A stretch of DNA of 64,000 nucleotides from the IMG/VR virus record IMGVR_UViG_3300030102_007483, positions 7,673-71,672 of that record; one strand, written 5' to 3'. A model generated the notes under the pieces. That model made no database searches, had not been told where the DNA came from, and worked only from the letters and a program-made list of their open reading frames with translations. Shown here one piece after another: positions 2,207-57,041 of this stretch. A program made the translations under genes and the position numbers. The number at the start of each line of letters is the position of its first letter. The first letter of the stretch is position 1. Origin of the DNA: a virus.

Positions 2207-2661
2207 AACTGCAACCAACATCCGAAGAAATCGCGGCATATTTGGAAGAAATGAACCCTGAAGCCTTAATGTACGAGGGATTCGAGGATGCTCTGGTTGG
2301 ATTTGCGAGTCGGTGCTCGACTCAGCCACTCGCTTTGTACGATCGCGGGAAATGCATTGATATCCTAGTAGATAGCGGAATGAGTCCCGAAGATGCCGAG
2401 GAGTACTTCGCATATAACGTCGAAGGTTGCTGGGCTGGACCCAACACTCCTCTAATCGCCGCCTTTTGTCTTGAGCCGATAGGACTCCGGTACCCCATAT
2501 CGAACTTGGAGTTGATTACAGAGACGGGCGGTGACGTCGAGGTATACGTCGGCAGACATACCGGGCCGGAATCCGTGACCGACTCTGCAGATACTGGGTC
2601 GGGTGGCGTAGACGGTGCATCCGAGTCCGGGGGTCCCGTCGGATCTAGTAAACAAACCTAA
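2203..2661 (+). CDS. Conserved phage hypothetical protein (GFEDALVG...YD..KCIDIL...M..EDAEEYF.YN.EG.WAG..TP family)
   Basis: GTGA start/stop overlap with the upstream gene; motif recalled from a widespread phage family; last ~67 codons overlap the antisense gene. Confidence 0.75.
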   Translation: MKLQPTSEEIAAYLEEMNPEALMYEGFEDALVGFASRCSTQPLALYDRGKCIDILVDSGMSPEDAEEYFAYNVEGCWAGPNTPLIAAFCLEPIGLRYPISNLELITETGGDVEVYVGRHTGPESVTDSADTGSGGVDGASESGGPVGSSKQT

Positions 2662-2808
2662 ATGTCCGCACGATCCGTCAGGTTTAATTTTAAAATCAAA
2701 CTGTTTATCCTCTTCCGGCAGCTCGATGTAGGGCAGTCGGTCCTTTATGTTGGCACAACAGCACCCACAAGATGTGCATTCAAACCTTTTATTGAGAGAT
2801 TTATTCAT
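2452..2808 (-). CDS. YkgJ-family cysteine-cluster (CxxCxxCC) protein
   Basis: FECTSCGCCC...DGSCGHL...CTVYATRPSICR is the complete YkgJ/CxxCxxCC signature. Confidence 0.85.
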   Translation of the reverse strand: MNKSLNKRFECTSCGCCCANIKDRLPYIELPEEDKQFDFKIKPDGSCGHLGLFTRSDGTPGLGCTVYATRPSICRVGHGFRPGMSADVYLDVTARLCNQLQVRYGVPESYRLKTKGGD

Positions 2809-2992
2809 GCCTTTGTATGTATTTAAGTGTGATAAGTGCGAGGAAAAGATCGAAGTCTTACAGGCGTTCGGAGATCCTGAGCCCGATTGCCAAGACTGTC
2901 AGGTACCGATGATAAAGCAAGTTGCCTTTGCTTCGTTTATCTTGCAGGGGTCTGGTTGGGCAAAAGACAACTACGGATTGAAGGAAGACTAA
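2807..2992 (+). CDS. FmdB-family zinc-ribbon protein
   Basis: MPLYVFKCDKC...CQDC...FILQGSGWAKDNY matches the FmdB consensus (MPxYxYxCxxC...FKGSGFY). Confidence 0.9.
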   Translation: MPLYVFKCDKCEEKIEVLQAFGDPEPDCQDCQVPMIKQVAFASFILQGSGWAKDNYGLKED

Positions 2993-3027
2993 ACTCGTTA
3001 TAGTATTTTTAAGGAGAACGATCGATT

Positions 3028-4167
3028 ATGGCATTGAAGGAAACCAAATCTCCTCAGGAAATTATCAACGAGATGAAGGCAGAGGAGCGTAGTCGATTAG
3101 CAAAAGCCGAGATCGAGATGGAGGGCGCGACGATTAGAGGTGCTATGCCGACCTTTAAGAACCTCACCAAAACTATCGATTACGGTATGACAGGGGATTC
3201 CACCCCTCGCCGCGACCTTTCTCATCCAACTGGTCAGATTTTTACGTTGCCCAACGGTAATGAAGTTGTGCTCGTCCCCGAGGCCGAGCTTCCAGAATTT
3301 TTGTTCGACGACACTGTGACAGGGAAGGATACAAACGAGGTTCGCGAATACTATCCACAGCGCCGGAGGCCCGAATATGACCCGTCCACTTACGAAGAAT
3401 ATGTTCTGAAGAGGCGCAACGATCGATTACGCAGAAGGAGAGTTAGCCCTCGTAATGAAGATGAGGGAGTCGATGCTCGACGAGTTATGGTCCCCGAAGC
3501 TGCCAAAGCCCTCAGAAAAGATAGAGCTTTTGGGGTTGAGGGCAGCTTTCCGGTTCATCATTTGGGTAATGGATTTTTCGTTCTGTTAGGTGTTGAGCAG
3601 CAGTATCAGCCTGATAAGAGTTCTTTCGGTACATATGAAATGACGTCTGACGGTCCTGTCCGCACCGACGACGGGCAACCAACTACGAAGTCTATCCCGA
3701 TCGTATTTTATTCCGATCCAAATAAGCCCATTGAATATGAAGCCTTAGACGATTACGACAAGAAAACTGACACGTATAGTTACGTCAAAGACACGCGCCC
3801 CTCGTTTGGTGGTTATCTTTTGGACCCCTCGCGGAACTATGTCCGTCAGGGGTATCGGTCTGTCTCTGACACGCAGGTGCCGTTCTACAACGTTGATAAG
3901 TCTAAAATTAAGCCGGAGTTGATACCGGACTTTACGGGGCGTGACGTTATCGAGGGGTACAAAGCTGCCAAGGCGGCATCTAGGTCTACACCTCCACGGG
4001 AGGTAAAGCCTCCTCGGGTGATGAAGCCTGCGCCGCCACCAGAGCCTCGACCAGAGCCTCCACCGTCGTTTCAAGGTCGTGAGGTACCTGTGGTCGATAC
4101 CTTAAAGGGTCGACGTCGTAAGGCAAAACGAAGATTTGCTGAGCGTCAGGAACTTACAGATGAATAA
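3028..4167 (+). CDS. Hypothetical protein with Pro-rich C-terminus
   Basis: 379 aa ORF, SD AAGGAG. Confidence 0.75.
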   Translation: MALKETKSPQEIINEMKAEERSRLAKAEIEMEGATIRGAMPTFKNLTKTIDYGMTGDSTPRRDLSHPTGQIFTLPNGNEVVLVPEAELPEFLFDDTVTGKDTNEVREYYPQRRRPEYDPSTYEEYVLKRRNDRLRRRRVSPRNEDEGVDARRVMVPEAAKALRKDRAFGVEGSFPVHHLGNGFFVLLGVEQQYQPDKSSFGTYEMTSDGPVRTDDGQPTTKSIPIVFYSDPNKPIEYEALDDYDKKTDTYSYVKDTRPSFGGYLLDPSRNYVRQGYRSVSDTQVPFYNVDKSKIKPELIPDFTGRDVIEGYKAAKAASRSTPPREVKPPRVMKPAPPPEPRPEPPPSFQGREVPVVDTLKGRRRKAKRRFAERQELTDE

Positions 4168-4202
4168 GTAGTTGTTATACTTGGTCGAACAAGGAGTTTA
4201 CT

Positions 4203-4526
4203 GTGGCGGCGGATCCCGAAAAAGATAAAGATGAAGATGCTGACTTCGACGGTAAGAAAGTCGACGTCAAGGTTGTTAAGCGTAATCAGAGTTTGCCCTC
4301 TATGGTCGCCAAGAAGAAATCCAAAAAGGGCAGATTTGTTCGTGCCGGACGAAAGAAGGTCGGTGATGATACCCCGCAAAAAATGATTGACGCCGCTAAG
4401 CGTGATCTTCAAAAGGGGGACAAAAAAAGTTTTCCTGATTTGAACAAAGACGGGAAGATTACGAAGGCTGATATCCTCATGGGTCGTGGTGTGAAACCTG
4501 CAGGCAAAACAGACAAGTCTCAATAA
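4203..4526 (+). CDS. Small basic protein with an EF-hand-like motif
   Basis: SD AAGGAG plus GTG start; FPDLNKDGKITKADIL is a DxNxDG Ca-binding loop. Confidence 0.75.
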   Translation: MAADPEKDKDEDADFDGKKVDVKVVKRNQSLPSMVAKKKSKKGRFVRAGRKKVGDDTPQKMIDAAKRDLQKGDKKSFPDLNKDGKITKADILMGRGVKPAGKTDKSQ

Positions 4527-4544
4527 ATATTTGGAGAAGTAGAA

Positions 4545-4766
4545 ATGGATGAAGCGAAAGAAATGATTGAGGAGGAAAAATCAAAACTTCAATCACAGGC
4601 ATTTGGTCCCAAAGGCGGCAAGTTGACTAAGCGTCAGGAAAAAACCATGAAGGCGCACTCTGAGCATCACAGCAAAAAACACATGGACTTTATGCGTAAA
4701 GAGATGCTGAAAGGCGTATCGTTCACAGAAGCCCATAAAAAAGCGCAAAAGAAAATAGGGAAGTAG
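4545..4766 (+). CDS. Small His/Lys-rich phage protein
   Basis: SD GGAG; HSEHHSKKHM...SFTEAHKKA motif. Confidence 0.7.
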   Translation: MDEAKEMIEEEKSKLQSQAFGPKGGKLTKRQEKTMKAHSEHHSKKHMDFMRKEMLKGVSFTEAHKKAQKKIGK

Positions 4767-4768
4767 TC

Positions 4769-6742
4769 ATGGCTGACAAGGCTAAAAATATTTTGGGTAA
4801 TCCGCCTTCGATACCTGACGAAGATATTGCGGCTCCGGACCAAAAGGCGATCGAAAGATTTGAGTCTCGTGAGACATACAAGGGATTTAAGATTCCTCGT
4901 ATGAATCCAAACACGGGCAAACCTATGACAATGCCGGAACGTCGAGCCTTTAGAAAAGCTATTGATGAGCGTGAAGCTTTTGCTCCATCATTTCAGAGGA
5001 AATTTCCTCGTGTGGCGGACGATATTATCGGCGACACATTTCGTGGCGTTAAGAGATCTGCGAAAGACTCCGCTCGAGAAATGTTCAAAGAAGCCGAAGG
5101 TCTTAAGAAAGTTCCCGGCTTGGCGGCTGATGTTGGTGAAGGATTATTTGAGGCGGCCACTATTGTGCCCCGAACCAAAGCGGCGATTGCTGCCGATCCT
5201 GAGGGCGCTAAGCAGTTTGCTAGAGCCGTAATGTCTGGAGACCGAGAGGCAATACGGTCGATGGCTACAGAGGCTTCTGAGGGCGTTGCAGAGCCTTTCG
5301 CTACCTTTGGAGATGCAGTTTTGTCTGCGGATGCTCTCGAAAGGGGTGAGCCTCTTGAGGCTGCTGGGTACGCGGGCCTTGTCCTTGCACCTTCAGTCTT
5401 GCAGCTTTTGGGTAAAAACATTTCCAAGGGTTGGTTGAAGAGTGCCGCTGAGGCGGGCGAAGAGATCCCTGATGAAGCCGCAAGGAAGATGAACGACCTT
5501 GCGAAGCGTGTAGACGAAGGAAAAGTCACAGACGACATGCAGGTCCGACGTGAGATCGCGGCAATCGAGGACACTCATAAAGCTGAGTACATGCAAAGCA
5601 AACCCTCAGGCGGCGAGCGTAAATCAGCTTTCGAGCCCTTCCCTGAGTATGTTCCGTCTCCAACCGGTATAACGTCTGATCAAAGTAAGAGGAACATTGA
5701 AGACGTCGTCAGTAAGGTCAGAGAAACCTCTGAGCGCGTTATGGGCAAGCCCCCCGGCAGCGGTGGCCGTAGCATTGAGGAGCGTTTAGCCTCAGAGGGT
5801 ATTCCAGTCCGTATGCCAGCGGGAGTTGCTAGACCCCAGAGCACTGACGCTCTCATGAGAAACGCTATTAATAATTTTGATATGTTTGGTAGTGGCTTGG
5901 GCGGACCCACCAAACTCTACAGAGTGGGGCAGCCTAACTTTCCTGAAGGTTTTTCTTACATGGAAGCCAGTAGTCCAGAAGCTTTAGAGCAGATTTTGCT
6001 GACTAATGGCGAGCTTTTCGAAGAATTTATCGACATGGGTGGACTTGCTGAAGCCACTGAAGGTGGTGTTAGGCGCGATATCTCGGACTTTATTTCTGAG
6101 GCGTCACCAGAAGAATCAGCGAAATATTTTGGTATGAAGGGTGGAGGCGGAGGATACCCCGGCGGCGGTGGTGGAGTAGCTGAATTTAGGGCGATGCAAG
6201 AGGGTATACGGAGCTTCTTGAAATCTTCGGACCCTGATGCATTGATACGACCAAATCCGTCACCTAAATTTGGTTTGTCGGATCAAGGACATCACAATGT
6301 CGTAGAGGATTTGGGTCCGCTTCTTCCCCAAGACAGAAACCTGCTTGAAGAGTTTGCAGGTAAATACAATTTGAGCGAAACAGAGTTGCGTCAGTTGCGG
6401 GATGAGTATGTAGCCTATGGGTATGATGATTTCCCATCAAGATCTCAGCGTGGTTTTGAAGAAATCGACATCCCCGACGATCGCTCAAGAGGCGGTCGTA
6501 GCATCGACGATATTGAGGGACCGTCTGAGGCTGAGATTGAAGAAATGATTGGTAAGGATTTCCGTGAGGATATGCAGGAAGATGCCAAGCGCAGGAACTT
6601 TGAGCAATTTGGTTTGGAGGCGGTCAAAAATGATCCCACTGGACGGCTTGCTCGCAGGCGTCGGCAGAGGATGAAAGGTACAGAGCGGGATCGTCCTCGC
6701 GGTGGTGCTAGACGTCGAGATGGTTTGGACGACGATAACTAA
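4769..6742 (+). CDS. Hypothetical 657 aa protein, possibly virion-associated
   Basis: Long ORF tightly coupled to the upstream gene; Ala/Gly-rich helical N-terminal half; internal GGRSI(E/D) repeat. Confidence 0.75.
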   Translation: MADKAKNILGNPPSIPDEDIAAPDQKAIERFESRETYKGFKIPRMNPNTGKPMTMPERRAFRKAIDEREAFAPSFQRKFPRVADDIIGDTFRGVKRSAKDSAREMFKEAEGLKKVPGLAADVGEGLFEAATIVPRTKAAIAADPEGAKQFARAVMSGDREAIRSMATEASEGVAEPFATFGDAVLSADALERGEPLEAAGYAGLVLAPSVLQLLGKNISKGWLKSAAEAGEEIPDEAARKMNDLAKRVDEGKVTDDMQVRREIAAIEDTHKAEYMQSKPSGGERKSAFEPFPEYVPSPTGITSDQSKRNIEDVVSKVRETSERVMGKPPGSGGRSIEERLASEGIPVRMPAGVARPQSTDALMRNAINNFDMFGSGLGGPTKLYRVGQPNFPEGFSYMEASSPEALEQILLTNGELFEEFIDMGGLAEATEGGVRRDISDFISEASPEESAKYFGMKGGGGGYPGGGGGVAEFRAMQEGIRSFLKSSDPDALIRPNPSPKFGLSDQGHHNVVEDLGPLLPQDRNLLEEFAGKYNLSETELRQLRDEYVAYGYDDFPSRSQRGFEEIDIPDDRSRGGRSIDDIEGPSEAEIEEMIGKDFREDMQEDAKRRNFEQFGLEAVKNDPTGRLARRRRQRMKGTERDRPRGGARRRDGLDDDN

Positions 6743-30805: not shown

Positions 30806-33800
30806 GTGGCAGAAACTCAAAAGCAGATGGAGGATCGTTTAGCTCGACTGAAAGCCAGCGACCCCGGCGATATGACGATTGATCTCGATGACGCTCCTGT
30901 GGGGGACAAGAAGCCTGCAAAGAAAGGCACTGATGTTGACGAAAAGCCACCAACCGAAGATGACAAACTAGGTAAGTTTGAAAAATTCCCTGAGTTCGAG
31001 GAGATGGACATTGATCTCCTCACAAAAGACCTTCAAATGAAACGGCTCGGTATTCGGATTGCGAGTGAGGCAGAATCGACAAAGCGAATAAATCCAAAGC
31101 TTGCGGCAGAAAAGAAAGAAAAAAACGAACCTATTCTCGCGTCGGACGAAATCCTCAAAGCGCATGCAGAGCTTGCGGGATTTACTGTCGAAGATTTCAA
31201 AAAGGCTGCCGAGTTTCAGGAAGCACCAATCCAAAATTTTTTCCGAGATATTGGAGATCAGGGTCGACCTGTCCAAGAAGTATTTGATGCCTACAAAACA
31301 CAAGAAAGTCTGTGGTCAAAAACACAGCAACAACGAAAAGTGTTGGCTAGAGGTGAAAAGGTTCGAATCAAAGGTATCGAACGAGTGGTTACGGGGGAAA
31401 AGAAATTGTCCCCTGAAAAAAGAAAGGAGACACTTCAAGTTCTCCTAGCGGCTAAAGACCCCCGATTGAAGAGCCGAATTTTTACGGGTGACGCCGACAG
31501 CGGTGAGGCTGAAGATGCAATCGCCAAGCCGGGTCAGGCTGGGTACGACCGTCTCACGATGCAGGCGAACAAGCTCATCAATAAAGAACTCGCAGATGAC
31601 AAGGAGCAGGCAGAGATTTATCAGAGTCACATTGCGGCTCTGGGGCCACCAACGACGGGCGCGATGATTCGTAACACTCTTGGTGAACGAAAGTTTCAAG
31701 AGATGGTAAATCAGATCTCCACTCATAAGCTCAACAAAATGGCTAAACGCCAAGGTGTTCAGAGAGGTACAGAAGCATATGAGGAATTGAGAGCTAAATC
31801 CAATCGTGACGCTCTGTACGAGGCCGCACTTCTAAGGACCGTGAATAAATACTATCTCCCCGGATTCGTGCAGTACGATCAGATTGACCCCGGAAACGTG
31901 CGTGGCGCGGAAGACACCAAGGATAAGTGGTGGATCACGCAAGCCATGAAAAACGCTGCGGATGTACGGATTGAGGTCGTCGGCTTGGACCCTAAGGGTA
32001 TTCCTGTCTATCGACTTACATCGCCTACATGGCATATTTTTGAGATGGCGGATTCGGTTCAGGCAGGTATTGCGGGTGCCATTGAGCGATTGTCCGACGA
32101 TGAGAGAGATGAGAGCATCTTGACTGCGATTCGAGAAGGATCCCTTGATGGTATTCGTAATCGACGAGACTTCTTGAAGGCGGCGCTGTCGAGTGAGGCT
32201 GCTGAGAACGGTGGTCTGGCTTCGTTTGCTATGGGGTCTGCGGGGCTTGTTGCTGCCATCCTCACTCCTGATCTCTTTATGGGCGCTGCCGCAGTCGCAC
32301 GAACAACAAAAAGGGTTGCGCAAATCGCGTCGGAAACTGCTGGGTTCCGTCGAGCCGCACCGGCATTGGTTGAATCTCTGGGAGATGGAGCGACAAGCTA
32401 CGCTAAAACCGAAGATGTGCTGGAGGCAGCAGAGGCTGCTGTTGCTAGAGGCGATTATGACTCGGCACTACTGATACTCGAAGAAGCTAAAACTATAGCT
32501 AAAAAAGGCGACGAGGCCCTGTCCAAGGCCCGTGGTGAGAATGTTGAGATTGCACGAGAAGTAGATCGATTGGATGTCGACATCGCTGCTCGCATGGGCA
32601 AAAAGGTGCCGGAAAGCACGTTTGCAGAGGGTAAGAGAGTCGCGTCAAAGATACCCGGATCCTTCGGAGAAACAGCCCAGAATGTTCATATGGGCGCTCG
32701 ACGGGTCATGTTGAGGGGCGAGTCACTCGATCAATTTACAGGATTTCCTGAGCTTCTGAGCTTCGAGAAGATGATCGATTCGTTGAAAGAAAGTGTCGAC
32801 ATTCTCAAGTCAGGCGACCTTAAAAACGCGTTCAATGCCAAACTTCGAGAGATGGTTGCAAACCCTTTTCGTAATGCCGTCGATGAACTTTTGACCGAAA
32901 CAGGCGTAGGCGTAGGAGATATAAATCGGAGTGTTGGCCTTAGACAACAATCTTTGGATTTGATGACATTCTTAAACAGTACAAAGAGTACTAGAATTCT
33001 ACGAGATGACCCGCAGTTGTATCGATCAGAGGTCATTCGCATCGCAAAGAAAATTGATTTCGATGACGCAGATAAAGAAAAGGCCTTCTTCAACGCGCTC
33101 GAAAAACGATTCCCAGACCTTTTAGACGAAGCTAATAATATTGGTAAAACACTGTCTAAAGTTTCCATCGCAGAGGCTCGTCAGGCCACATCGAGAGGGA
33201 TTGCTGCAATTAGGGGGAATCTTGAGTCTCGCGCAGCCTCATCGGCGTTTATTCGCGAACGTGTGGCCGAACAGGCCAAGGTGGCGGCTGAACCTCTTTT
33301 GATAAAGCTAACGGATCGATATGCCGAAGTTGGTCGAGATCGACTCTCGCCTCAAGCTCTGCAGATTCAAGACGCTATTTTGGACATCTACCCAAACATA
33401 GACTCATCAGAAATACGAAAGTTTACTCGTATGATGGATCAAGAGGCGAAGAAGTTTGCAGATTCTAAAAAAGGTAGAACTGTTGCAGACTTCTACGCGG
33501 AGAGATTTGGTGGTATCAAGAAGGGACTAGACGACGTTGCCGATGAAGTAAAGCCGAAGGACGTTAAACCGGAGACACAGAAGGATCCCACGATTGATGA
33601 GGTTACTCCAAAGGATGTTGCTCCGGAACCACAACCAGCACCACCAGCACGAGACCTTTTGGATGATGTTGAGGCCGGAAATATTTCTAAGTTGCCGAAG
33701 GGGCTTCAGGATGCTCTACGTGGAATTGCTAACGACGCGAAGAAAAGAGGCGGGTTTTCAGGACCAATTCAGGGTGTAAAACCTCAGCAGGTTTTGCCTG

Positions 33801-36800
33801 AGGTTGAAGACGCGTTCGCCGATTTGATGAATGCTGATCGACGCACCCAAGAAGTAAGGCCAGCAATACACGTTTTAAAATCATCCTCGCCGGGTTTGAG
33901 TGCCCGTACTTTATATAATCACGTCTCTAAGATGACACGCATGGACGAAGTGTGTGATTTTTTAGCCCGTCATGCGGAGCTTGATTCCACCAGACTGTTG
34001 GCTCAAAAAATACTGCCGAACCTACGTCGTGATCCGGGACAGTTTCGTGTCATCAGCGGTAAAGTCGATGACGTCGACCTTAGTGTGCGAGACGCTCATG
34101 GATTGTATTTTCCTAACACCCATAGAATATTTATACGTGGCGCACAAAAACCGGCAAGATTGGGCGATGAAATTCCGATCGAGACGGGTCTGACCGAAGA
34201 AACTCTTATTCATGAGTTGCTTCATGCAGCGACGGCAGTGTTCATCCAAAAAAACCCGAACGCTAAAGTTGTTCGAGATTTAGATCAACTTATTTCCGAA
34301 GTTCGAACTGGTTTGGGTGATTTGATCAAACAGATGACTGATGCGGGGCGAGGCAATCAACTCGGCTCGGTTTCCTTCTACTCCAATAACTTTGACTCCT
34401 ATGTTGGTTCTGCGGATGAGTTTCTTGTCCGCGCAATGACAGATCCAAAGTTCCAACGACTTTTGAAGCTAATTAAAGTAACGCCTAGATTAAGTATCTG
34501 GAATAAGTTTACGCGCGCTGTGGCATCTATTTTTGGTATTCGCAAAGAAGATGAAACAACCGCTCTGTCACAGGCGTTGATTGCCAGTGAAAGAGTTATA
34601 CAGAAGTCAGTAAAATTTGATCAACGACCTGCGTCAGATGCTGAACCCATCGTTAAGGTTCTTCGCCCTACACAAGGCACACCCGGAGTCGATGTAGGTG
34701 AACAAGTGGGCATGATCGATGAGTTTAGTGGCTTACCACTGTATGCAGAAAATGCATTACCCGACAGAATTAAACCGGATGTTTTTATCACATCGCCCAA
34801 ACTACGAAATCGCCCAGAAAATGGAATCACTCTGCAGACAGACAATCTTAGCGACCTTATTTCTCTGCGTGATTCGTTTACAGAAACATTTTCTGGTGTT
34901 CGAATTCCTAGATCAGATTCGGAGCAAGTTGTTCGTGTTTCAAACAGCTTCATTGACGTTGGTTTGAGGGGTAGAGGATTCGGCACCGACCTTTATCTGA
35001 GGGCATTGAAGTACGCACAAAATGAGGGAGTCGGTTTTGTAAGTGATGTCAGCCCAACGGGCGAAGCTCTTCGGGTTTATGCGAAATTGCGTTCGATGGG
35101 AGTTGGGTTTCGTCGATTACCCGTTCGTCTTGCAGACGGTAGTTTAGGGGAGGCCTCGTACATAGACGCTGTGTCTCTGGCTAAAGTTGATCTGGATGAT
35201 CTGGCGGTAACTCATGGTCTGCAAAATCGCTCAAGTATGTTTGGTCCATATGATAGTTTCGAAACGATTCCATCGAAGGTCCTGTACTCAAAACTAGCCG
35301 ACACATCGGATCCTTTGGTTGTTGAATTTTTGGAGAACGGGCAAGCAATCATTCGCGCTATTGGTGAGACTGCGAGTGTTGATGATTTTATTCGTGTTCT
35401 TGGTCGAATCTCACGCAGAGATCTTGATGAAAAGGGCATGAATATTGTTACGGATTGGCTCAAAACTAGAGGTATTAATGTCGGTTTTCAGGGTGCAAAG
35501 TTTACATCTGCTAACCCTGCTGACATTGAAAGGGCTGAGTCTGAGTTTGCGTCCGCCTTTGCTGCCTACGTTGACTCTGGTAGGGCAACGGACCCCGAAC
35601 TTGTAAAGCCTTTCAACACAGTTCGTGAGTGGGTTTCAGGTAAATATACTGCTCTTAGGAGTGCTGAAGCCGATGGAGCACCGTTTGAAATCGACGATCG
35701 TCTGACACTTCAACTCGACAAGATGATGCGGGTCCCTTCAAAGCGTGTCGGCATGCCGAACATCGTAGGCATGCTCAAAGACGCACTCATCAAACCAGAT
35801 TTGGGTGGGACATCAGTTGATGTTTTGGAGGAGATTGCTCGAGAAAGTTTCCGCTTGGGTACACCGATCAAAAAGAAAGACCTTCAAGAGCAGTTTACCA
35901 AGGCCTTGAAAGCGTACAACGCGGGCCGTAAAGAAGAGGCCGTCATAAGGTTACCGGGCCCCGTATCTATACGTGGGTGGAACGCTAGTTCAAGCACTGG
36001 CGCTAAAGAGTTTACCCTCGATGAGCTTGCCGACATACAACAAAGCTTGGAAACTGCAAAGCGTTTGGAGCTTCAGGAGGCCAGAAAGCTTGGTATGCCG
36101 ACTGCGGCACGAGCAATTGAAGAGAAGAATCCATCAGAGTTGGTCGATCAGTGGGTCACACAGAACCCAGTACAGGGCGCGTTCCGGTTCATGTATTTGG
36201 GTGGTGACGCGTTCGCAGATATGAGGCTGCTGCCTCCAGTCGTCCGTGATGCAATCATGGCCGGTACCCGAGCAGTGCAGCAAGCCATCGGTGATGCGAT
36301 TACTCTGGTTGCAGAAAAAGACATTGCTAAGTTGACCCAACTTTTGACTGGTGCTCCGAATGTTCAGTTTACAAAAGGTGGTCGATCAGCAATCAGTGCT
36401 GGCCACGATCACATGGCGGCTGTTTCATTAAACTTAGGGCGGTACTTCGCATCCGTGAATCAAACGAACTTGGGCATTGTACGAAACTTTGTTCAAAGAG
36501 TAAGAGTGTTGGACTCCACTGCGAAGGCAGCAGCAGAACTAAGTGCGGAAGAATTGGGCAAGGTATCCGAAATCGTTAATGATCTGATATCTGGAGATAA
36601 GGCTTCACGTTTTGTCACTGAGGTTTTCAAAGCGGCTGGATTTACGGGTAGTCGCATCGAGCCAAAGTTCTTTACGGAACCAGCTACAGGCCTTGATCCC
36701 GGCGGTCTGCTTGAAATATTGATGTATTACAGCAACGTATCCGGTCGTGTTGATCCTTCGATGACGACTCAAGATGGTCGACAAGTGTTTGCTTTCTTCA

Positions 36801-39349
36801 ACGAATCTATGAAGAACCGTGGTGCTCAGCGTGTGACATCGCAGAACATGTTTACAGGTCTTTACGCAGACATCAACGCAAAGTTTACAGACGACCCCAC
36901 AGTAGCTAACCGGGTTGCGGTGTTGATTGCTGGGCATGGTCAAGCTCACGCGGCGAAAAAACGTTGGGTCGACCTTGGAGTGGCGGCGGACGAAGATCTG
37001 GCAAGATCAATGCGCCAATACATCGTCGGTGAGTCTATCGATCCCGATGATGTCGTTCGAGTCAAAAACGCTTTCGACTCTCTTGGTTACAACCCCAACA
37101 TGGTCGAGGGATACGCTTTGGACGGCGTAACTATGTTTATACCCAGAGCCGGTAGAGAGCGTTTGAATATGGTTCTCGCTCAAGCTCAGGATCCTTCGCT
37201 GCTCAAAACAGACAATATGGATACTATTTCTGCCTTGAATGAAATCTCATCGGCGGGAGAAAGAATCATTACTGGTGCCGGTACAAACAGCACTACGGCA
37301 CTTAGTTTCGCACTTTTTTACCGATACCTGAAAACACGAATGGTTCGTGGTCACTTTGTTCTTAAGTCTCGATATTTTTGGATGAACACATTTGATCACT
37401 TCAATCAAACGGCTCAACGCGCCGGGTTTAGAACTGCCGCGATATCAACGACTCGTATGTTCACGCAGAATGTCCTTTCAAACCCAATAGGTCAGGCGTT
37501 TGTTTTTGCGGCAAGAAGAACGGGTAAGGGAGATGCCGCAGAGGCTGCGCGTCGGGTTCTGCAAGAAGGTGGGGACAAAGCTGCCGAGTGGGCGGGTAAA
37601 CTGACTCGCGGGTCAAAATGGCACATCAAACTCAATCCAATATTGGAGGGTGCGGAAGGCATCGTAATGATTGCCGGAAAGCCCTACAGGAACACAGATA
37701 TTAGGCAAGCGGCTCTTGAAGCAGGTATTTTTGCCTCATTCGACACCAGTCAGTTGGGTACAAAAATTCAAAATGTCGGGAACCTTTTTCTTCAGACTGA
37801 GGCGAAGAAGGGTCGACTGACAAAACTTGGAACAGATATCCTCGACGACGTGAAGGGAGCATCGGAAGACATCGCAGAAGCGTGGGCCGAACGAGAGCGA
37901 CTCGGATGCATGATTACCCTGATGGAAGCGGGTATCGACCCGAGAACTGCCGCAAAGATAAGCATCGAGGCACTGTACGATTACGCAGGAAGCATGTCGA
38001 AAGGTGATCGAAACTTTTTGCTGAACATATTCTTCCCATTCTGGGCCTTCCAGAAAAACGCAAACCGACAAATTTTCGACGCGATGTTCAGTCCCGAAGG
38101 CGCTTACAGGCTCGGTGTCATGCGTAGAGCCTATGACAAGGGCAGTGAATACCTTAGTTATCTTACCTATGGTGCAATGGTCGACGAGAACGGTATTGCC
38201 GTCGACTCTTTGCCCCCAGAACTACGAAGCACATATTTTGCTTTCAAAAAGCAAATGCAAGACCTGTATGGTGAGAACGGAAAAATTCCAGCACCTATAC
38301 AAGAGGAAATACGATTGTTTGTCGCGCAGTCCATGATCAAGACAACCGGCGGTAAAGTCATGCAAGGGTCTGTGTACTACGACGATTTTATCGATATTGC
38401 TGCGTCGATCAAGGGTGAGGATGGTAAATCTGTGGGCTTAGATCGAAGAGCACTCGCTTCGTACTACATGCCTATTCCTGATAGGTCCGGACTGCAGACC
38501 TACTTTAGAGATCGCATTTCATTCCCTCTGCCCTACGCGCCAGAGAAGTTCGGTGAAACGCCTGTAAACTACGCTCCTCCCGAAGATTTTCAGAACACAA
38601 CTAAAGCTTGGAATGATCTGTATCGACAGAAGAGAGCCGACGCTCCTTACATGGCTTTCTTTATGCCTGAACCCACTTATGTTGCAGCGTTCAATCACTT
38701 CTCGTACTTGATGGCAACTAAGATCCTCATGATGCAAAAAATGGAGGACATGGGTGACCGTTGGTTTACGGACGAAGACGATGGTTCCGATGCCATCACA
38801 CCACTTGCTGCAGTCAACGCGCTGCTGAGCCCCGCTCGTGCGCCGGTCCTTTCCGACGTTCAAGCAAGTTTAGGTACGGGTGGAGCGACGATTCCGAAAA
38901 GAATTGCCCAAGACCTTGTTCATTTTTTCGACTATCACCTGATTGATTTGCTTGAGTTAGATGAGTCCGAAGATATTTTTGATATTCAACTGCAACAACA
39001 ACGGGATGAGGCCGAGGGTCGAGAGCCTCGGGATCTGCCGATAAAACCTATTGATGCAGCTATTGTGCCGACAAAACGATACTACATGATGCCCGGCGTA
39101 GCACAAATGTTGTTTATCAATAGTCCGCTTGGAGAGTTGAACGACATCCTCCTGAAGGCAGAAAAGACTCCGATGGAAAAAGCATCCGGCATAAGAGGTG
39201 ACGTTCAAAAGTGGTTGAGAGTGTTCACGGGTCTGGATCAAAGAGAAATTATCAGAGACAGGACGGTGATGTCAGAAAAGTTCCGGGCCGAAGATCAAAC
39301 GTCTGACGTCACAAAGGAAAGGGCCAGAGAAAAAACTCAACTAGATTGA
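30806..39349 (+). CDS. Giant ejection/polyvalent protein with zincin metallopeptidase-like and GNAT-like domains
   Basis: 2847 aa; TLIHELLHAAT...DEFLVRAMTDPKFQ (HExxH); LRGRGFGTDLY (GNAT motif A); C-terminal ALYDY...FFPFWAF typical of T7 gp16-type proteins. Confidence 0.8.
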   Translation: MAETQKQMEDRLARLKASDPGDMTIDLDDAPVGDKKPAKKGTDVDEKPPTEDDKLGKFEKFPEFEEMDIDLLTKDLQMKRLGIRIASEAESTKRINPKLAAEKKEKNEPILASDEILKAHAELAGFTVEDFKKAAEFQEAPIQNFFRDIGDQGRPVQEVFDAYKTQESLWSKTQQQRKVLARGEKVRIKGIERVVTGEKKLSPEKRKETLQVLLAAKDPRLKSRIFTGDADSGEAEDAIAKPGQAGYDRLTMQANKLINKELADDKEQAEIYQSHIAALGPPTTGAMIRNTLGERKFQEMVNQISTHKLNKMAKRQGVQRGTEAYEELRAKSNRDALYEAALLRTVNKYYLPGFVQYDQIDPGNVRGAEDTKDKWWITQAMKNAADVRIEVVGLDPKGIPVYRLTSPTWHIFEMADSVQAGIAGAIERLSDDERDESILTAIREGSLDGIRNRRDFLKAALSSEAAENGGLASFAMGSAGLVAAILTPDLFMGAAAVARTTKRVAQIASETAGFRRAAPALVESLGDGATSYAKTEDVLEAAEAAVARGDYDSALLILEEAKTIAKKGDEALSKARGENVEIAREVDRLDVDIAARMGKKVPESTFAEGKRVASKIPGSFGETAQNVHMGARRVMLRGESLDQFTGFPELLSFEKMIDSLKESVDILKSGDLKNAFNAKLREMVANPFRNAVDELLTETGVGVGDINRSVGLRQQSLDLMTFLNSTKSTRILRDDPQLYRSEVIRIAKKIDFDDADKEKAFFNALEKRFPDLLDEANNIGKTLSKVSIAEARQATSRGIAAIRGNLESRAASSAFIRERVAEQAKVAAEPLLIKLTDRYAEVGRDRLSPQALQIQDAILDIYPNIDSSEIRKFTRMMDQEAKKFADSKKGRTVADFYAERFGGIKKGLDDVADEVKPKDVKPETQKDPTIDEVTPKDVAPEPQPAPPARDLLDDVEAGNISKLPKGLQDALRGIANDAKKRGGFSGPIQGVKPQQVLPEVEDAFADLMNADRRTQEVRPAIHVLKSSSPGLSARTLYNHVSKMTRMDEVCDFLARHAELDSTRLLAQKILPNLRRDPGQFRVISGKVDDVDLSVRDAHGLYFPNTHRIFIRGAQKPARLGDEIPIETGLTEETLIHELLHAATAVFIQKNPNAKVVRDLDQLISEVRTGLGDLIKQMTDAGRGNQLGSVSFYSNNFDSYVGSADEFLVRAMTDPKFQRLLKLIKVTPRLSIWNKFTRAVASIFGIRKEDETTALSQALIASERVIQKSVKFDQRPASDAEPIVKVLRPTQGTPGVDVGEQVGMIDEFSGLPLYAENALPDRIKPDVFITSPKLRNRPENGITLQTDNLSDLISLRDSFTETFSGVRIPRSDSEQVVRVSNSFIDVGLRGRGFGTDLYLRALKYAQNEGVGFVSDVSPTGEALRVYAKLRSMGVGFRRLPVRLADGSLGEASYIDAVSLAKVDLDDLAVTHGLQNRSSMFGPYDSFETIPSKVLYSKLADTSDPLVVEFLENGQAIIRAIGETASVDDFIRVLGRISRRDLDEKGMNIVTDWLKTRGINVGFQGAKFTSANPADIERAESEFASAFAAYVDSGRATDPELVKPFNTVREWVSGKYTALRSAEADGAPFEIDDRLTLQLDKMMRVPSKRVGMPNIVGMLKDALIKPDLGGTSVDVLEEIARESFRLGTPIKKKDLQEQFTKALKAYNAGRKEEAVIRLPGPVSIRGWNASSSTGAKEFTLDELADIQQSLETAKRLELQEARKLGMPTAARAIEEKNPSELVDQWVTQNPVQGAFRFMYLGGDAFADMRLLPPVVRDAIMAGTRAVQQAIGDAITLVAEKDIAKLTQLLTGAPNVQFTKGGRSAISAGHDHMAAVSLNLGRYFASVNQTNLGIVRNFVQRVRVLDSTAKAAAELSAEELGKVSEIVNDLISGDKASRFVTEVFKAAGFTGSRIEPKFFTEPATGLDPGGLLEILMYYSNVSGRVDPSMTTQDGRQVFAFFNESMKNRGAQRVTSQNMFTGLYADINAKFTDDPTVANRVAVLIAGHGQAHAAKKRWVDLGVAADEDLARSMRQYIVGESIDPDDVVRVKNAFDSLGYNPNMVEGYALDGVTMFIPRAGRERLNMVLAQAQDPSLLKTDNMDTISALNEISSAGERIITGAGTNSTTALSFALFYRYLKTRMVRGHFVLKSRYFWMNTFDHFNQTAQRAGFRTAAISTTRMFTQNVLSNPIGQAFVFAARRTGKGDAAEAARRVLQEGGDKAAEWAGKLTRGSKWHIKLNPILEGAEGIVMIAGKPYRNTDIRQAALEAGIFASFDTSQLGTKIQNVGNLFLQTEAKKGRLTKLGTDILDDVKGASEDIAEAWAERERLGCMITLMEAGIDPRTAAKISIEALYDYAGSMSKGDRNFLLNIFFPFWAFQKNANRQIFDAMFSPEGAYRLGVMRRAYDKGSEYLSYLTYGAMVDENGIAVDSLPPELRSTYFAFKKQMQDLYGENGKIPAPIQEEIRLFVAQSMIKTTGGKVMQGSVYYDDFIDIAASIKGEDGKSVGLDRRALASYYMPIPDRSGLQTYFRDRISFPLPYAPEKFGETPVNYAPPEDFQNTTKAWNDLYRQKRADAPYMAFFMPEPTYVAAFNHFSYLMATKILMMQKMEDMGDRWFTDEDDGSDAITPLAAVNALLSPARAPVLSDVQASLGTGGATIPKRIAQDLVHFFDYHLIDLLELDESEDIFDIQLQQQRDEAEGREPRDLPIKPIDAAIVPTKRYYMMPGVAQMLFINSPLGELNDILLKAEKTPMEKASGIRGDVQKWLRVFTGLDQREIIRDRTVMSEKFRAEDQTSDVTKERAREKTQLD

Positions 39350-53224: not shown

Positions 53225-53821
53225 ATGGGCATCAAAATTTCTGGTAACGCATTTCAAGGTATTAGTTCGTTGGGATCTGCCGTCCCTAACGCGGGCTTTT
53301 ATCCTGTCTCAATCGTACGTATTGAGACTGGAGCAAACGACAAACCCGGAACTCGGAGGTTTCACGTCCAGTTCGATAATGGGTTCAAGATGTTTACGTT
53401 TGTGAGCCTGCCATACGACAACAGCGGCAACCTACTGCCGGGCCTCAGTGACAAGCAGGTACGTGGTCGAATGGCCGCTCTTCGAACTATTCTCGAGTCT
53501 CTTGGTTACACAAAAGAAAATATCGAGACTGCAGATGAGATCAATGATGCATGGTTCTTGGGAACTATGAACAATGGTCGAGTAGCATACGTTGAGTTTG
53601 AGCCGGGTCAGAAAGGAGTTGCAGGGTCATACAACGAGATCAAACGATTCCTTACTAAAGAACAATTCGAAGCTTTGAGTGAAGTAAGCAACGAAAAACC
53701 TGTAGAGACCGTGGATCAGAAACAAGCCGCGCCCGAACCGACAACTAATGGTGCCCCAGTACCTCCGTCTGGAGTGTCTTTGCCGCCGCCTGTTAGTGCT
53801 GCCCAGAACATCGTGGGCTGA
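53225..53821 (+). CDS. Single-stranded DNA-binding protein (DUF669-like OB fold, putative)
   Basis: VPNAGFYPVSI...YNEIKRF plus a flexible tail; follows Sak4; SD AAGGAG. Confidence 0.7.
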   Translation: MGIKISGNAFQGISSLGSAVPNAGFYPVSIVRIETGANDKPGTRRFHVQFDNGFKMFTFVSLPYDNSGNLLPGLSDKQVRGRMAALRTILESLGYTKENIETADEINDAWFLGTMNNGRVAYVEFEPGQKGVAGSYNEIKRFLTKEQFEALSEVSNEKPVETVDQKQAAPEPTTNGAPVPPSGVSLPPPVSAAQNIVG

Positions 53822-53824
53822 TTA

Positions 53825-56605
53825 GTGGCATCCTTCAACCCCAAAGAATGTGGCGCGCGGTGTGACGTCTGTCCGTTGGGGCCAGAAGGACCACTTCATA
53901 AAGATGAGTGGCGGCCTGTGGGTGGTGAGTTCCATCGACAGGCTGCCATCATCGCTGTAGCTGAATCCCCCGGAGCAGATGAGGTTCAGCACGGGAGACC
54001 TTTAGTTGGTCGAGCAGGTACAGAGTGGGCGAACGCTCTGGTGCAGGCTGGAAAAGGTAGAGTGGACGTCGACTTGGATCACGTCATCTCATGCAAGCCG
54101 CCGGGACAAGACTCTGGGTCGTGGCGTCGTATGGAAAAGGCACTCGACAGACTCAACAGAAGACGACTGAAGAATGGTGATGATCCTCTGCCTCACCCAG
54201 TCGAATGTTGTCGGCCTCGCCTTATGAGTGTGGTCGAGAAGTATGAAAACATTATTACCTTAGGTAAAACTGCAACGTCAGTATTGACGGGTCAATCAAG
54301 CAGCATCCAAAGTTTGCGAGGTGGCCCGATGCAGATTGACGACGACTTTGATTGGGTGTCCGATCGTGGGACGAGAAAAATTATGCCCATGCTGCACCCG
54401 TCGTTTATTTTAAGGTCACCGAGTTGGAGGCATGTATTGCACTCTGACGTGGCCAAAGCATTTAGGTGGTTCGACAATTGTTTGCGCTGGACATCGCCAG
54501 ATAGTCTGATCAACCCATCGCCTGATGAACTTGCTGACTGGTTGTCCCAAAGCGCGCCGTTCTGGGCTTACGACGTTGAGACAGACGGGATCGAACCCTT
54601 AGAGTGCAATCTGCGAACAATCGCGATTGCTATCCCTGACATGGATGAAACGGGTAAAGCTGCTCGGTCAAACGTGTATCAAAATGCGAAGGCCGTAGGT
54701 GTCGGTCTGCTGTCGGTTGATGGTCGCACACGAATCTACAACCCTGAAGATGAGAGAAAGATTTTGGATCTTCTCCGTCAGGCATTTACAGACGGACGAG
54801 TATGGGTTGGTCACAACGCAGGATACTACGACAGGATGGTGGTCGAGACTCAACTCGGAGTCACACCCTACCCGCTTGTGGACACTCTTTTTCATGCACG
54901 TTTTAGGGCCCCAGATCTGCCGAAAGGGTTGAAGACAATTGGTTCAATACTGACCGATGTCGAGCGTTGGGAAACAACAGAAAAGGGAACACACATATCG
55001 ACCGGTAGTCAGGATGACGATGAGCTACTGCGATACAACATCGTTGATTCTACAGTCAACGCACGGATCGTTGTGCCCTTGATGGACGCTTCTGCTGCTG
55101 CTGGAGCATTCGAAAGCATATCACCAGACATCAAACCTTCTGGTTGGTCAATCGCTCGACCGTGGAATCTAAATGAAATCGACCATGCCACACAAGAGAT
55201 GTGTGTTGGAATGCACAAGTCGGGTGTTTGGGTCGATCAAAAGCTTCGTTCATTGTTGGAAGCGGAGTATGATGTATCAGTACGAAAACGCTACAAGAAC
55301 CTGCAGTCACTGGCTCAGTGCGTTGGGTTGTCTAAATTGGACTCAGACTCGGTGAACGAGTTGAACCCCGGTAGCGCCGATCAAATTCGTAATCTGCTCT
55401 ATGAGCGTTGGGGCTTGGGTATACCTGCATCAATGGATGCGCGGGAGTTCTACACCGAGACGGGCGCTCCGGGTACTGGTGACGCGGTGCTGAGGGCGCA
55501 TCTTGCCTCAGGTCGATTGACGGAAGATCAAGAATCATTTGTTCGTGAGTTGAGACTGTATCGGAGGGAGAAAAACAAAATCTTGGGAACCGTTTTGATT
55601 CCACTGCGCAGACGCGATCAAGACTCTAAAAAAGGATTGGTCCATGAAGATGGTCGTGTCCGATCAACATGGAATGCTCACGTAACAAGTGTGGGCCGAC
55701 TGAGTAGTAGCGGACCAAACTTACAGAATATCGGTAACCGAAAAGGTCAGGGAAGACTGAAAAAGATTTTTGCCGCTCCTCCCGGACGAATACTTGTTGG
55801 AGCCGATCTCGATCAAGCGCACCTGAGAATCACGGCTTGTTATTGGCAAATACCCCGTTTGCTTGAATGCTTTGCAACTGGAAAGGATCCCCACAATCTT
55901 CTTGCTTACGACGTTTTTGGTAAAGACTTTAAGAATGCAAGCGGATGGGGTCCGGATGGTTTCAGCTTGAACCGCAAGCCTACAGGCGGTGAAGCAAAAG
56001 CTATGCGCGATGTAATGAAGACCTTTCGGTACGCGTCAATCTATTGGGCAGACCCTACGACTGTATGGCAGGTACTGACTAGCACAGAGACAGATGATGG
56101 TCGTATGCCATACCTGAAGTTCGAGACGAGGGAAGTAAGGCATTTCCACAACAAGTGGCTCGAGGCAGAGCCTGAGTGGGAGGTGGCGTGGAAGAACATG
56201 CTGCAGCTTTATGAGAAGCAGGGCCATATGTTTGAGCCGGTGTTCGGTCGCAGGTCAGGGCCACTGTCAGACGGTAAAAAGAATGAGGTCGTAAACTTCC
56301 CAATCCTCGCGGCAGAATCGTCGATTATGAGAATCGCAGAACAAGAGGTAATCTCGGCGTTCCCGTTTGACTACGCGGGTCGTGGAACTGGAATGATCCA
56401 TCAGTGCCATGATTCTATAGCAGTTGAAATTGAACTGCCATCGGGGCTACCTCAAGACTGGCAGCCGGTATCCGGTGAACCGTTGCCACCACAAATAGAG
56501 CATGCACGAAAAACTATCGAATCATGCATGACAGTTTCTCTTCCGGGATGGGAAGTCCCAATGACTGCTGAGGCCGACGTCGGTCGCAGCCTTAAAGATG
56601 TTTGA
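53825..56605 (+). CDS. polA: Family A DNA polymerase with N-terminal family-4 UDG-like domain and 3'-5' exonuclease
   Basis: UDG: CxxC, AESPG, GRPLVG, C, C, HPS. Exo: YDVET, GHNAGYYD, YNIVD. Pol: GRLSS..PNLQNI, DLDQAHLR, RDVMKTFRY...Y, HD. Confidence 0.95.
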   Translation: MASFNPKECGARCDVCPLGPEGPLHKDEWRPVGGEFHRQAAIIAVAESPGADEVQHGRPLVGRAGTEWANALVQAGKGRVDVDLDHVISCKPPGQDSGSWRRMEKALDRLNRRRLKNGDDPLPHPVECCRPRLMSVVEKYENIITLGKTATSVLTGQSSSIQSLRGGPMQIDDDFDWVSDRGTRKIMPMLHPSFILRSPSWRHVLHSDVAKAFRWFDNCLRWTSPDSLINPSPDELADWLSQSAPFWAYDVETDGIEPLECNLRTIAIAIPDMDETGKAARSNVYQNAKAVGVGLLSVDGRTRIYNPEDERKILDLLRQAFTDGRVWVGHNAGYYDRMVVETQLGVTPYPLVDTLFHARFRAPDLPKGLKTIGSILTDVERWETTEKGTHISTGSQDDDELLRYNIVDSTVNARIVVPLMDASAAAGAFESISPDIKPSGWSIARPWNLNEIDHATQEMCVGMHKSGVWVDQKLRSLLEAEYDVSVRKRYKNLQSLAQCVGLSKLDSDSVNELNPGSADQIRNLLYERWGLGIPASMDAREFYTETGAPGTGDAVLRAHLASGRLTEDQESFVRELRLYRREKNKILGTVLIPLRRRDQDSKKGLVHEDGRVRSTWNAHVTSVGRLSSSGPNLQNIGNRKGQGRLKKIFAAPPGRILVGADLDQAHLRITACYWQIPRLLECFATGKDPHNLLAYDVFGKDFKNASGWGPDGFSLNRKPTGGEAKAMRDVMKTFRYASIYWADPTTVWQVLTSTETDDGRMPYLKFETREVRHFHNKWLEAEPEWEVAWKNMLQLYEKQGHMFEPVFGRRSGPLSDGKKNEVVNFPILAAESSIMRIAEQEVISAFPFDYAGRGTGMIHQCHDSIAVEIELPSGLPQDWQPVSGEPLPPQIEHARKTIESCMTVSLPGWEVPMTAEADVGRSLKDV

Positions 56606-56612
56606 GGTTTGT

Positions 56613-57041
56613 ATGAAATCGCAATGGTTCCTAGCTCACAGTAAAAAAGATGAACCCGAAGAAATTGAACTCTGGTGCAAAGAGATCGGCGAGAATCTTA
56701 CAGGTGATGGATGGGAGGCGTTTGTCATCTCTGGTCGCGATGACTACGCCAATCGATCCGCCGCAATGGGTGGGTGGAAAGCTTGGTGCCGGGACGTACC
56801 TTCTGGTACAGACTATGCTGGTCATCCGATGTACCACGGTGTCATCGTTCCCGCAGATTCATTGATAGAAGAACCGACCGTGGGCAAGGCTACCGCACAA
56901 ATCATCGAGGGTTTTCTGAGGGAAGGCAAGCATGCATATACATGGTGCCCCGATTCTAAAAAGTTCAAGCAAATATATTCTGTCGAAACACTTCCAAATG
57001 ATGACTGGGTGGCTTGGGCAAAACTTGTGTTTGAGTCTTGA
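56613..57041 (+). CDS. TIR/nucleoside 2-deoxyribosyltransferase-like fold protein (putative)
   Basis: WFLAHSKKD, YHGVIVP, VGKATAQIIEGFLREGKHAY follow the flavodoxin-like NDT/TIR pattern; SD GAGGT. Confidence 0.5.
   Translation: MKSQWFLAHSKKDEPEEIELWCKEIGENLTGDGWEAFVISGRDDYANRSAAMGGWKAWCRDVPSGTDYAGHPMYHGVIVPADSLIEEPTVGKATAQIIEGFLREGKHAYTWCPDSKKFKQIYSVETLPNDDWVAWAKLVFES

Follow-up and report, generated by a model that had tools for sequence, protein, structure and literature searches.

A 64,000-nucleotide stretch of viral DNA (the window; bases 7673-71672 of the 71,672 bp IMG/VR virus record IMGVR_UViG_3300030102_007483, which is rated 100% complete) carries a gene for a single polypeptide in which an N-terminal uracil-DNA glycosylase (UDG)-type domain is followed by a 3′-5′ exonuclease and a family-A polymerase, the arrangement that defines the UDG-PolA fusions. 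The host of this gene is an uncultured tailed phage of ~72 kb. We propose, with a probability of about one half, that the fusion carries out replication-coupled uracil surveillance of the template, using a family-4 pocket that is somewhat weakened and still functional. The gene product would be a replicative family-A DNA polymerase with a built-in, family-4-type, iron-sulphur (Fe-S) uracil-recognition domain, which, lying beside the exonuclease and the fingers, may take up the single-stranded 5′ template before it reaches the polymerase site. Template bases would be flipped into the pocket, uracil would be removed, or at least captured, before it is copied, and host enzymes would complete the processing of the abasic sites. 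We infer both the position of the UDG domain on the template and the excision of uracil by analogy with polymerases whose structures have been solved.

In the 926-aa protein, Pfam matches residues 36-201 to UDG (PF03167; E 2.5e-10) and residues 511-870 to DNA_pol_A (PF00476; E 3.7e-28), and there is a weak match to 3′-5′ exonuclease PF01612. The AlphaFold2 (AF2) full-length model has a predicted local distance difference test score (pLDDT) of 93.3 and a predicted template-modelling score (pTM) of 0.90, and this whole-chain pTM suggests that the domain arrangement of the fusion is fixed. The last UDG helix of the model stops at residue 216; VIA-align places the exonuclease part on Klenow-type structures from residue 220-226 on (Z 28-30), and the polymerase domain is matched by both Foldseek and VIA-align to Klenow, Bst and apicoplast polymerases. 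The span that the initial annotation had given to the UDG domain, 53825-54480, corresponds to residues 1-219 and does coincide with that domain. The GTG start of the gene is supported, because the N-terminal 31 residues hold two conserved cysteines (C13 and C16) and the alignment of homologues begins at residue 3-5.

The UDG domain belongs with family 4 both in sequence and in predicted fold. A phmmer search of the PDB with residues 1-232 gave the Thermotoga maritima family-4 UDG (1l9g/1vk2; 2e-17) as the best match, and then that of Thermus thermophilus (Tth; 1ui0; 1.6e-12). For a model of the domain alone (pLDDT 95.9), the best Foldseek matches were 1l9g, 1vk2, UdgX, 1ui0/1ui1 and 4zbx at E 1e-12 to 1e-14, with target-normalised template-modelling scores of 0.72-0.77 for 1l9g/1vk2/1ui0/1ui1/4zbx; a family 5 enzyme (2d3y) came at ~1e-7 and the polymerase of phage phiLo (9qhs) at 7e-7. 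With the full-length model, 9qhs lay outside the best 50 Foldseek and the best 50 VIA-align matches listed.

The first HMMER alignment stretch pairs query residues 28-94 with Tth 22-88 free of gaps, so that query residue n is Tth n-6: A46 stands at G40, E47 at E41, S48 at G42, E53 at E47, L60 (in GRPLVG) at F54, H86 (in DLDHVISC) at N80 and Q95 at N89. A second stretch sets H191 (in HPS) at Tth H155. We verified the codons of the flagged residues at their window coordinates. The residue calls of the initial annotation (Fe-S cysteines, E41, E47 and H155 kept; G40A, F54L and N80H changed) are therefore all right by alignment and by codon; to these we add the replacements of G42 by Ser and of N89 by Gln, and two inserts seen as alignment gaps, one of 25 residues (96-120) and a smaller one at ~171-183, none of which it had mentioned. 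The first insert forms a helix (residues 99-116; block pLDDT 85-95 when the whole chain is modelled and 94-98 for the domain alone), in which N111 is kept in at least 90% of rows. C13, C16, C90 and C129 are invariant in 110/110 aligned full-length homologues and match cysteines of a cellular family-4 UDG, and the four would be expected to bind a [4Fe-4S] cluster. Motif A reads A-E-S-P-G, keeping the Glu, the Pro and the final Gly and departing from the canonical G-E-(A/G)-P-G, while motif B (HPSFILR, residues 191-197) conforms to the consensus H-P-S-(S/A)-(L/V)-(L/V)-R that contains the catalytic His (from the accessible part of PMC10359453), its fourth residue being F as in phiLo. The aromatic stacking residue (F54) and the uracil-reading Asn (N80) are missing, with L60 and H86 in their places.

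The residues that are kept are those most important in the Tth enzyme, and those that are changed are milder in effect. According to the accessible part of Xia 2017 (Table 1), k2/Km in Tth UDGa falls ~2500-fold with H155S, 888-fold with E41Q, 120-fold with E47A, 89-fold with G42D, 44-fold with N80A, 17-fold with F54A and 7-fold with N89A; in that account Tth E47 blocks thymine, N89 (motif 3) is proposed to position the attacking water, and H155S leaves Km almost unchanged. Among 14 close relatives the median pairwise ratio of nonsynonymous to synonymous substitution (dN/dS) is much alike in the UDG domain (0.066) and the exonuclease (0.064) and lower in the polymerase (0.035); these values are rough, since dS is saturated and could be computed for only 36, 24 and 11 of the 91 pairs, respectively. 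With such ratios, a confidently predicted fold and family-4 enzymes as the best structural matches, the UDG domain is not decaying. On this point the initial annotation, which had argued against simple decay from the retained catalytic residues, is borne out by the kept equivalents of E41, H155 and E47, by the dN/dS of ~0.066, by the pLDDT of 95.9 and by the family-4 matches.

The fusion has many relatives. A word-indexed search with the UDG region recovered 111 fused UDG-PolA proteins (28-100% identity in the best local UDG alignment), many of them on contigs of 65-73 kb; an exhaustive search of a library clustered at 50% identity gave 4523 matches at E <= 1e-3, the 150 best-scoring of which are mostly of polymerase length, and 122 clusters at E <= 1e-30; and 69 related loci, 59-100% identical, are present in IMG/VR. 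From these we drew a close set (112 rows with the query, 5 of them without the pocket region, hence 107), an IMG/VR set (69 rows, query included), a wider set of 144 cluster representatives, and a pool of 256 proteins made of the nearest relatives and the best-scoring cluster representatives, of which 247 have both specificity positions present; none of these samples is random.

The two specificity positions behave differently in these sets. The Tth F54 position (60) is mostly Leu or another aliphatic residue among the relatives (L 94, F 9, M 2 and I 2 in the close set; L 58, I 8, V 2 and M 1, hence all aliphatic, in IMG/VR), with Phe prevailing in the wider family (F 83 against L 51). The N80 position (86) is variable: the close set has N 48, H 46, Y 3, L 2, T 2 and a few others, the 69 IMG/VR rows have H 35, N 29, Y 2 and one each of L, T and C, and in the wider family Asn outnumbers His by 114 to 5. 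The conservation of His in orthologues, which the initial annotation had wished to see checked along with that of Leu, is not borne out; such variability, which it had itself named in advance as speaking against its reading, extends to two loci ~80% identical to the query (L019 and L065) that have Asn (AAT), while relatives at 81-85% have His (CAT or CAC), one transversion away from AAT. Elsewhere in the pocket of the close set, position 46 is A 76 and G 20, position 48 is S 63 and A 22, E47 is kept in 100/107, position 53 is E 74 and D 31, H191 is present in 94/112 (Ser in 13/112), and P192 is present in 112/112. The commonest seven-residue signatures among the pooled 247 are GEAEFNH (47), AESELNH (21), AEAELNH (16) and the query's own AESELHH (15).

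We mapped these traits on a FastTree tree built from the exonuclease and polymerase parts only (219 rows, 669 columns, trait columns excluded), the supports of which we trust only moderately. At least 12 parsimony changes are required for Asn versus His at position 86 (10 independent contrasts lie on supported branches), which makes this site a recurrent toggle, with H86 as an interchangeable alternative to the uracil-reading Asn. Positions 46 and 60, by comparison, vary together: the pairs are AL 100, GF 69, GL 16 and AF 4, and the independent contrasts run 16 in the same way, 0 in the opposite way and 7 without difference (median p 3e-5). A46+L60 is accordingly one compensated switch from G+F that has arisen many times in UDG-PolAs. 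We would regard A46+L60 and H86 as natural variants of the pocket which probably lower uracil handling without abolishing it. Two further couplings were considered and dropped, that of D85 with H86 in an Asp-His dyad (D85 with N in 28 rows and with H in 22; T-H 25; contrasts p 0.5) and that of H86 with L60 (L-N 70, F-N 68, L-H 44; contrasts p 1). No UDG paper dealing with Asn to His at this position was found by title in open-access PMC and bioRxiv, and we found no description of the A/L coupling or of the N/H toggle in the open-access literature.

Of the 48 rows with His at position 86, 47 retain both E47 and H191, and Asp is never found at this position (0/247, as against 51 with His). In human UNG, the N204D change makes a cytosine glycosylase. 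As Asp is one transition away from Asn, its absence is suggestive of, and does not prove, selection on an active pocket.

Do L60 and H86 instead retune the pocket to another base, such as 5-hydroxymethyluracil (hmU), hypoxanthine, xanthine or a modified pyrimidine, or bring tolerance of uracil? This was the direction that the initial annotation had taken, and we hold it to be unlikely. In its favour, the reader of uracil N3/O4 is replaced, H86 is fixed in the immediate subclade of the query (81-100% identity), and Czernecki et al. 2023 (Nucleic Acids Research, PMC10201439) speculated that phage polymerase UDG domains select for or against modified uracils. The SPO1 relative CP-51 also lacks this Asn: its gp104 (locus L005) is a UDG-exonuclease-PolA protein of similar length, the UDG of which aligns with that of the query at ~24-27%, and it has QENPY as motif A, GKYFSG around the F54 position and T-A at that of N80, with Ala for the uracil-reading Asn, and with the Phe and the HP motif kept. 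In SPO1 itself, T is replaced by 5hmU (PMC10201439).

The remaining evidence does not support a changed base specificity. Asn and His alternate among close relatives with otherwise identical motifs, which is hard to fit to a switch of substrate, and L60 is one half of the common A/L pair, which occurs equally in Asn-type proteins (the AESELNH and AEAELNH signatures counted above). E53, the steric block to C5 substituents that excludes thymine, is kept. We also looked for three enzymes in 13 near-complete genomes from the clade (completeness 91-100%; H, N or Y at position 86; positive controls responded): a ThyA-type hydroxymethylase was found in 0/13, dUTPase in 0/13 and ThyX in 1/13, and Pfam gave no gene of nucleotide modification or dNTP metabolism in the 61 open reading frames (ORFs) of the phage's own genome that were scanned besides the six at the locus. 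Because ThyA-like enzymes and modification genes were not found in these searches, a replacement of thymine of the hmU type, as in SPO1, is argued against. About 50 of the 61 ORFs match no Pfam family, and a novel modification pathway could be hidden among them. The lack of dUTPase in the 13 genomes makes deoxyuridine (dU) in phage DNA a plausible problem for the clade.

It is an equally improbable idea, to our mind, that the switching between Asn and His on the Ala/Leu background is adaptive, the His types reading another lesion or base or stalling as a sensor. If true, the toggling could track an arms race with host defences that raise dUTP or with glycosylase inhibitors, and the clade would offer a set of naturally occurring specificity switches for a glycosylase coupled to replication.

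The closest functional parallel to the proposed uracil surveillance comes from the SP15-like phages, in which the same N-terminal UDG is fused to an exonuclease and PolA. In the accessible part of Missoury et al. 2026 (Nucleic Acids Research, PMC13697223), on which the statements below from this source rest, the phiLo and YerA41 polymerases were solved (PDB 9qhs), dU was removed from the 5′ template in advance of the polymerase site and the abasic site was bypassed with dA; PolX and a ligase co-occur with these enzymes, and YerA41 excises dU even though its domain is MUG-like and its motifs non-canonical. The phiLo UDG is of the family-4 type (GEAPG, GRPF, TN, NHPSF) and can be aligned to the query, its H178 and F181 falling on H191 and F194. 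It is likely, by this analogy, that the working principle is shared, the UDG meeting the 5′ template before the polymerase site does. The differences are considerable: identity between the two UDG domains is ~25-26%, the query has A/L/H for G/F/N, phiLo lacks the 25-residue helix insert, and the query protein (926 aa, against 1142-1306 aa) is, judged by length alone, too short for Inserts 1/2 and the C-terminal domain of the SP15-like enzymes. Unlike the SP15-like phages, this clade shows no ligase or PolX, no ThyA-like enzyme (0/13) and, by Pfam in the genome of the query, no thymine hypermodification genes. With neither PolX nor an ATP-dependent ligase of its own, the phage would need host repair for its abasic sites.

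The background given with the initial annotation can be adjusted here: UDG-PolA fusions were indeed known, and the non-catalytic role that it cited as a proposal for SPO1-like phages is slightly off; since October 2026 the SP15-like enzymes have been shown to excise dU. Czernecki et al. 2023, who described the UDG-PolA fusions and placed those of N4-like phages in cluster #17, proposed a second editing mode for active UDG domains and a processivity role for inactive ones, and noted that the UDG-PolAs of SPO1, SP-10 and SP-15 keep their catalytic residues (PMC10201439).

Several of our findings weigh against uracil surveillance by a working pocket. Of the seven Tth pocket or catalytic positions, four differ (G42S, F54L, N80H, N89Q), as does G40 (G40A), and activity could be very low if the effects of these changes multiply; the N89 equivalent is variable even within the clade (Q 51, A 16, K 13, T 6 and E 5 in the close set). 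In one subclade Ser replaces the catalytic His (H191S, 13/112; 20/247) and the domain is retained; it must therefore also have a value that is independent of catalysis. ATP-dependent ligase and the PolX palm, partners of the active SP15-like enzymes, are each found in 0/13 genomes, the pattern that Missoury et al. 2026 list for N4-like phages with an inactive UDG. The template position of the domain is carried over from the SP15-like structures, and the roughness of the dN/dS ratios counts on this side as well.

These observations would fit a non-catalytic module, whose fold, Fe-S cluster and DNA-binding surface are kept to guide or hold the 5′ template, be it for processivity, for strand displacement or as a docking platform, as has been proposed for N4-like phages; we consider this possible, on the doubtful side. 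Five pocket positions are then unlike those of active family-4 enzymes, the subclade without the His would be accounted for, the partner genes would follow the N4-like pattern in all 13 genomes, and the conserved Arg/Lys-rich helix insert could be an added DNA-binding part. That inactive UDG domains serve processivity or strand displacement has already been proposed (Czernecki et al. 2023; Missoury et al. 2026). However, the N4 domain has decayed past Pfam detection, whereas here the equivalents of E41, E47 and H155, motif B and the Pro and Gly of the pocket are under strong purifying selection, and a structural role leaves unexplained both the kept thymine-excluding Glu and the missing Asp at position 86.

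Some features are shared with N4. Both phages are ~70 kb in size, have a PolA with an N-terminal UDG-derived domain and have no phage ligase, and the window, besides portal, large terminase and major head protein genes, codes for an SNF2-type helicase, a PD-(D/E)XK exonuclease, a Sak4-like annealase and a DUF927 primase, as in N4 gp37-gp44. N4 gp39 has no Pfam UDG match and aligns with the query over 199 aa of the polymerase core only (31%). The query keeps the Fe-S cysteines and Tth E41, E47 and H155, and so lacks the loss of catalytic residues that goes with cluster #17. We also rejected an N4-like label for the phage as a whole: a 2847-aa ORF compared by BLASTP and phmmer with the N4 virion RNA polymerase gave at best E 0.02 over 45 aa.

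A third possibility is that the domain acts as a uracil sensor, binding tightly, cleaving slowly and pausing the polymerase ahead of dU for host repair. Archaeal family-B polymerases have a read-ahead uracil pocket to which such a sensor may be likened. The residues for binding and for the leaving group are kept, while the water-positioning Asn (Q95 here, and variable) and the aromatic stack are lost, and the SP15-like structures of Missoury et al. 2026 show the domain in cis on the 5′ template. From sequence alone, a sensor looks the same as slow excision; yet the kept H155 argues for chemistry, as H155S hardly alters the Km of the Tth enzyme (Xia 2017, accessible part), and we think a dedicated sensor very improbable.

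Taken with its cellular and phage relatives, the query falls within a large, uncultured clade of UDG-PolAs that lies outside the N4-like, SPO1-like and SP15-like groups. It shares with the cellular UDGa of T. thermophilus and T. maritima (1ui0, 1l9g/1vk2), its best matches, the four Cys, E41, E47, H155 and motif B, and differs from them in being fused to a polymerase, in G40A, G42S, F54L, N80H and N89Q, and in the inserts at 96-120 and ~171-183. Close cultured relatives did not appear when the gene was compared by megablast with 50,697 phage records (no match), and all tblastn matches had 30% identity or less. A search for shorter proteins, which might have held a free-standing UDG of the A/L/H type, gave 10, mostly fragments or possible split genes, and no separate lineage; one of the 10 is a cellular family-4 UDG at 28% identity.

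In UDG-polymerase fusions the surveillance of bases is tied to replication, and not until 2026 was a mechanism first worked out for them. Our findings leave the general view of such enzymes unaltered and describe a variant of a known design with a differing pocket and an extra helix. The clade does reveal that the family-4 pocket has two recurrent natural alternatives, G/F versus A/L and Asn versus His, which are ready variants for tests of efficiency and specificity, and which bear on whether phages without dUTPase, ligase and PolX depend on the UDG domain. The features of the gene are collected in Table 1.

Table 1. Features of the UDG-exonuclease-PolA fusion gene, with positions in the window
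Feature	Position	Strand	Evidence
UDG-exonuclease-PolA fusion gene	53825..56605	+	926 aa; GTG start 3 nt past the stop of the preceding ORF
Family-4-like Fe-S UDG domain, residues 1-220	53825..54484	+	Pfam, PDB phmmer, domain model, Foldseek
C13-x2-C16, putative [4Fe-4S] ligands 1 and 2	53861..53872	+	Invariant in 110/110, and in 232/232 non-gap rows
Motif A, A46-E47-S48-P49-G50 (canonical G-E-A/G-P-G)	53960..53974	+	Alignments
E53, Tth E47, thymine-excluding residue	53981..53983	+	Alignment; role from Xia 2017 (accessible part)
L60, Tth F54, base-stacking position, codon TTA	54002..54004	+	Alignment, codon check
H86, Tth N80, reader of uracil N3/O4, codon CAC	54080..54082	+	Alignment, codon check
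C90, putative Fe-S ligand 3	54092..54094	+	Invariant in 247/247
Q95, Tth N89, motif 3, proposed water-positioning Asn, replaced here	54107..54109	+	Alignment; role from Xia 2017 (accessible part)
Insert of ~25 residues (96-120), Arg/Lys-rich, helix 99-116	54110..54184	+	Alignment gaps, models
C128-C129; C129 putative Fe-S ligand 4	54206..54211	+	C129 in 247/247, C128 in 222/247; aligned to cellular UDG P0265
Motif B, H191-P-S-F-I-L-R197, catalytic His at Tth H155	54395..54415	+	Alignments
3′-5′ exonuclease domain, ~residues 221-440, Exo I D250-x-E252	54485..55144	+	Weak PF01612; D250 and E252 invariant in 110/110
PolA polymerase domain (D661..., H862-D863 conserved)	55145..56602	+	PF00476; D661, Q664, R668, H862 and D863 nearly invariant

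On either side of the fusion gene lie ORFs that look co-translated with it: one of 198 aa (window 53225-53821, + strand), with a Pro/Ala-rich tail, the stop of which is 3 nt ahead of the polymerase start, and one of 147 aa (56598-57041, +), which shares 8 nt with the end of the polymerase gene, stop included; no Pfam or PHROG match was obtained for either. The same is true of the 2847-aa ORF mentioned above, which occupies 30806-39349 (+) in the structural region. A search for tRNA genes found none. Upstream of the window, a DUF3228 protein (E 2.7e-31; G000:C1:4421-5065, - strand, the same as L002:4424-5065) adjoins a canonical single-stranded DNA-binding protein gene (PF00436).

Some relatives depart from the single-chain arrangement. 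P0258 (239 aa), P0259 (208 aa) and P0260 (278 aa) are UDG-only proteins, 46-62% identical to the UDG of the query, on contigs of 6-45 kb, and may be split or frameshifted versions of the fusion. Locus L015 (81% identity, polymerase match 2620-5397) has an in-frame stop at about codon 484, with the downstream part out of frame, which could mean that the gene is frameshifted or split, or that the sequence is in error.

Others depart in their motifs. The subclade with Ser at the catalytic His (L021-L035 / P0022-P0040; ~73-74% identical overall) has a His two residues on (TFSPHYVTR); its other pocket residues include G46, I/L/V60 and N86, and its motif A contains an Arg (GEAPR); the catalytic His could have been relocated in this subclade, or catalysis lost. 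In six proteins (P0102, P0104, P0105, P0150, P0204 and P0223; signature GANEFNH, 6 rows), motif A is G-A-N-P-G instead of G-E-A-P-G. We take this Asn to be at the site of the MUG/SMUG-type catalytic Asn, on a family-4 Fe-S scaffold.

Three distant relatives (P0127, P0179 and P0208) carry inteins within the UDG domain; the Intein_splicing matches are below the Pfam cut-off, and P0127 also has a LAGLIDADG match. In P0127 and P0179 the intein stands directly ahead of the Cys aligned to C90, four residues past the N80 equivalent, so that this Cys is the +1 extein residue, and the insertion point in P0208 is nearby; P0221 and P0151 have inteins in the polymerase part. The presence of inteins at or near the Fe-S Cys90 site in three relatives indicates that this site is strongly conserved.

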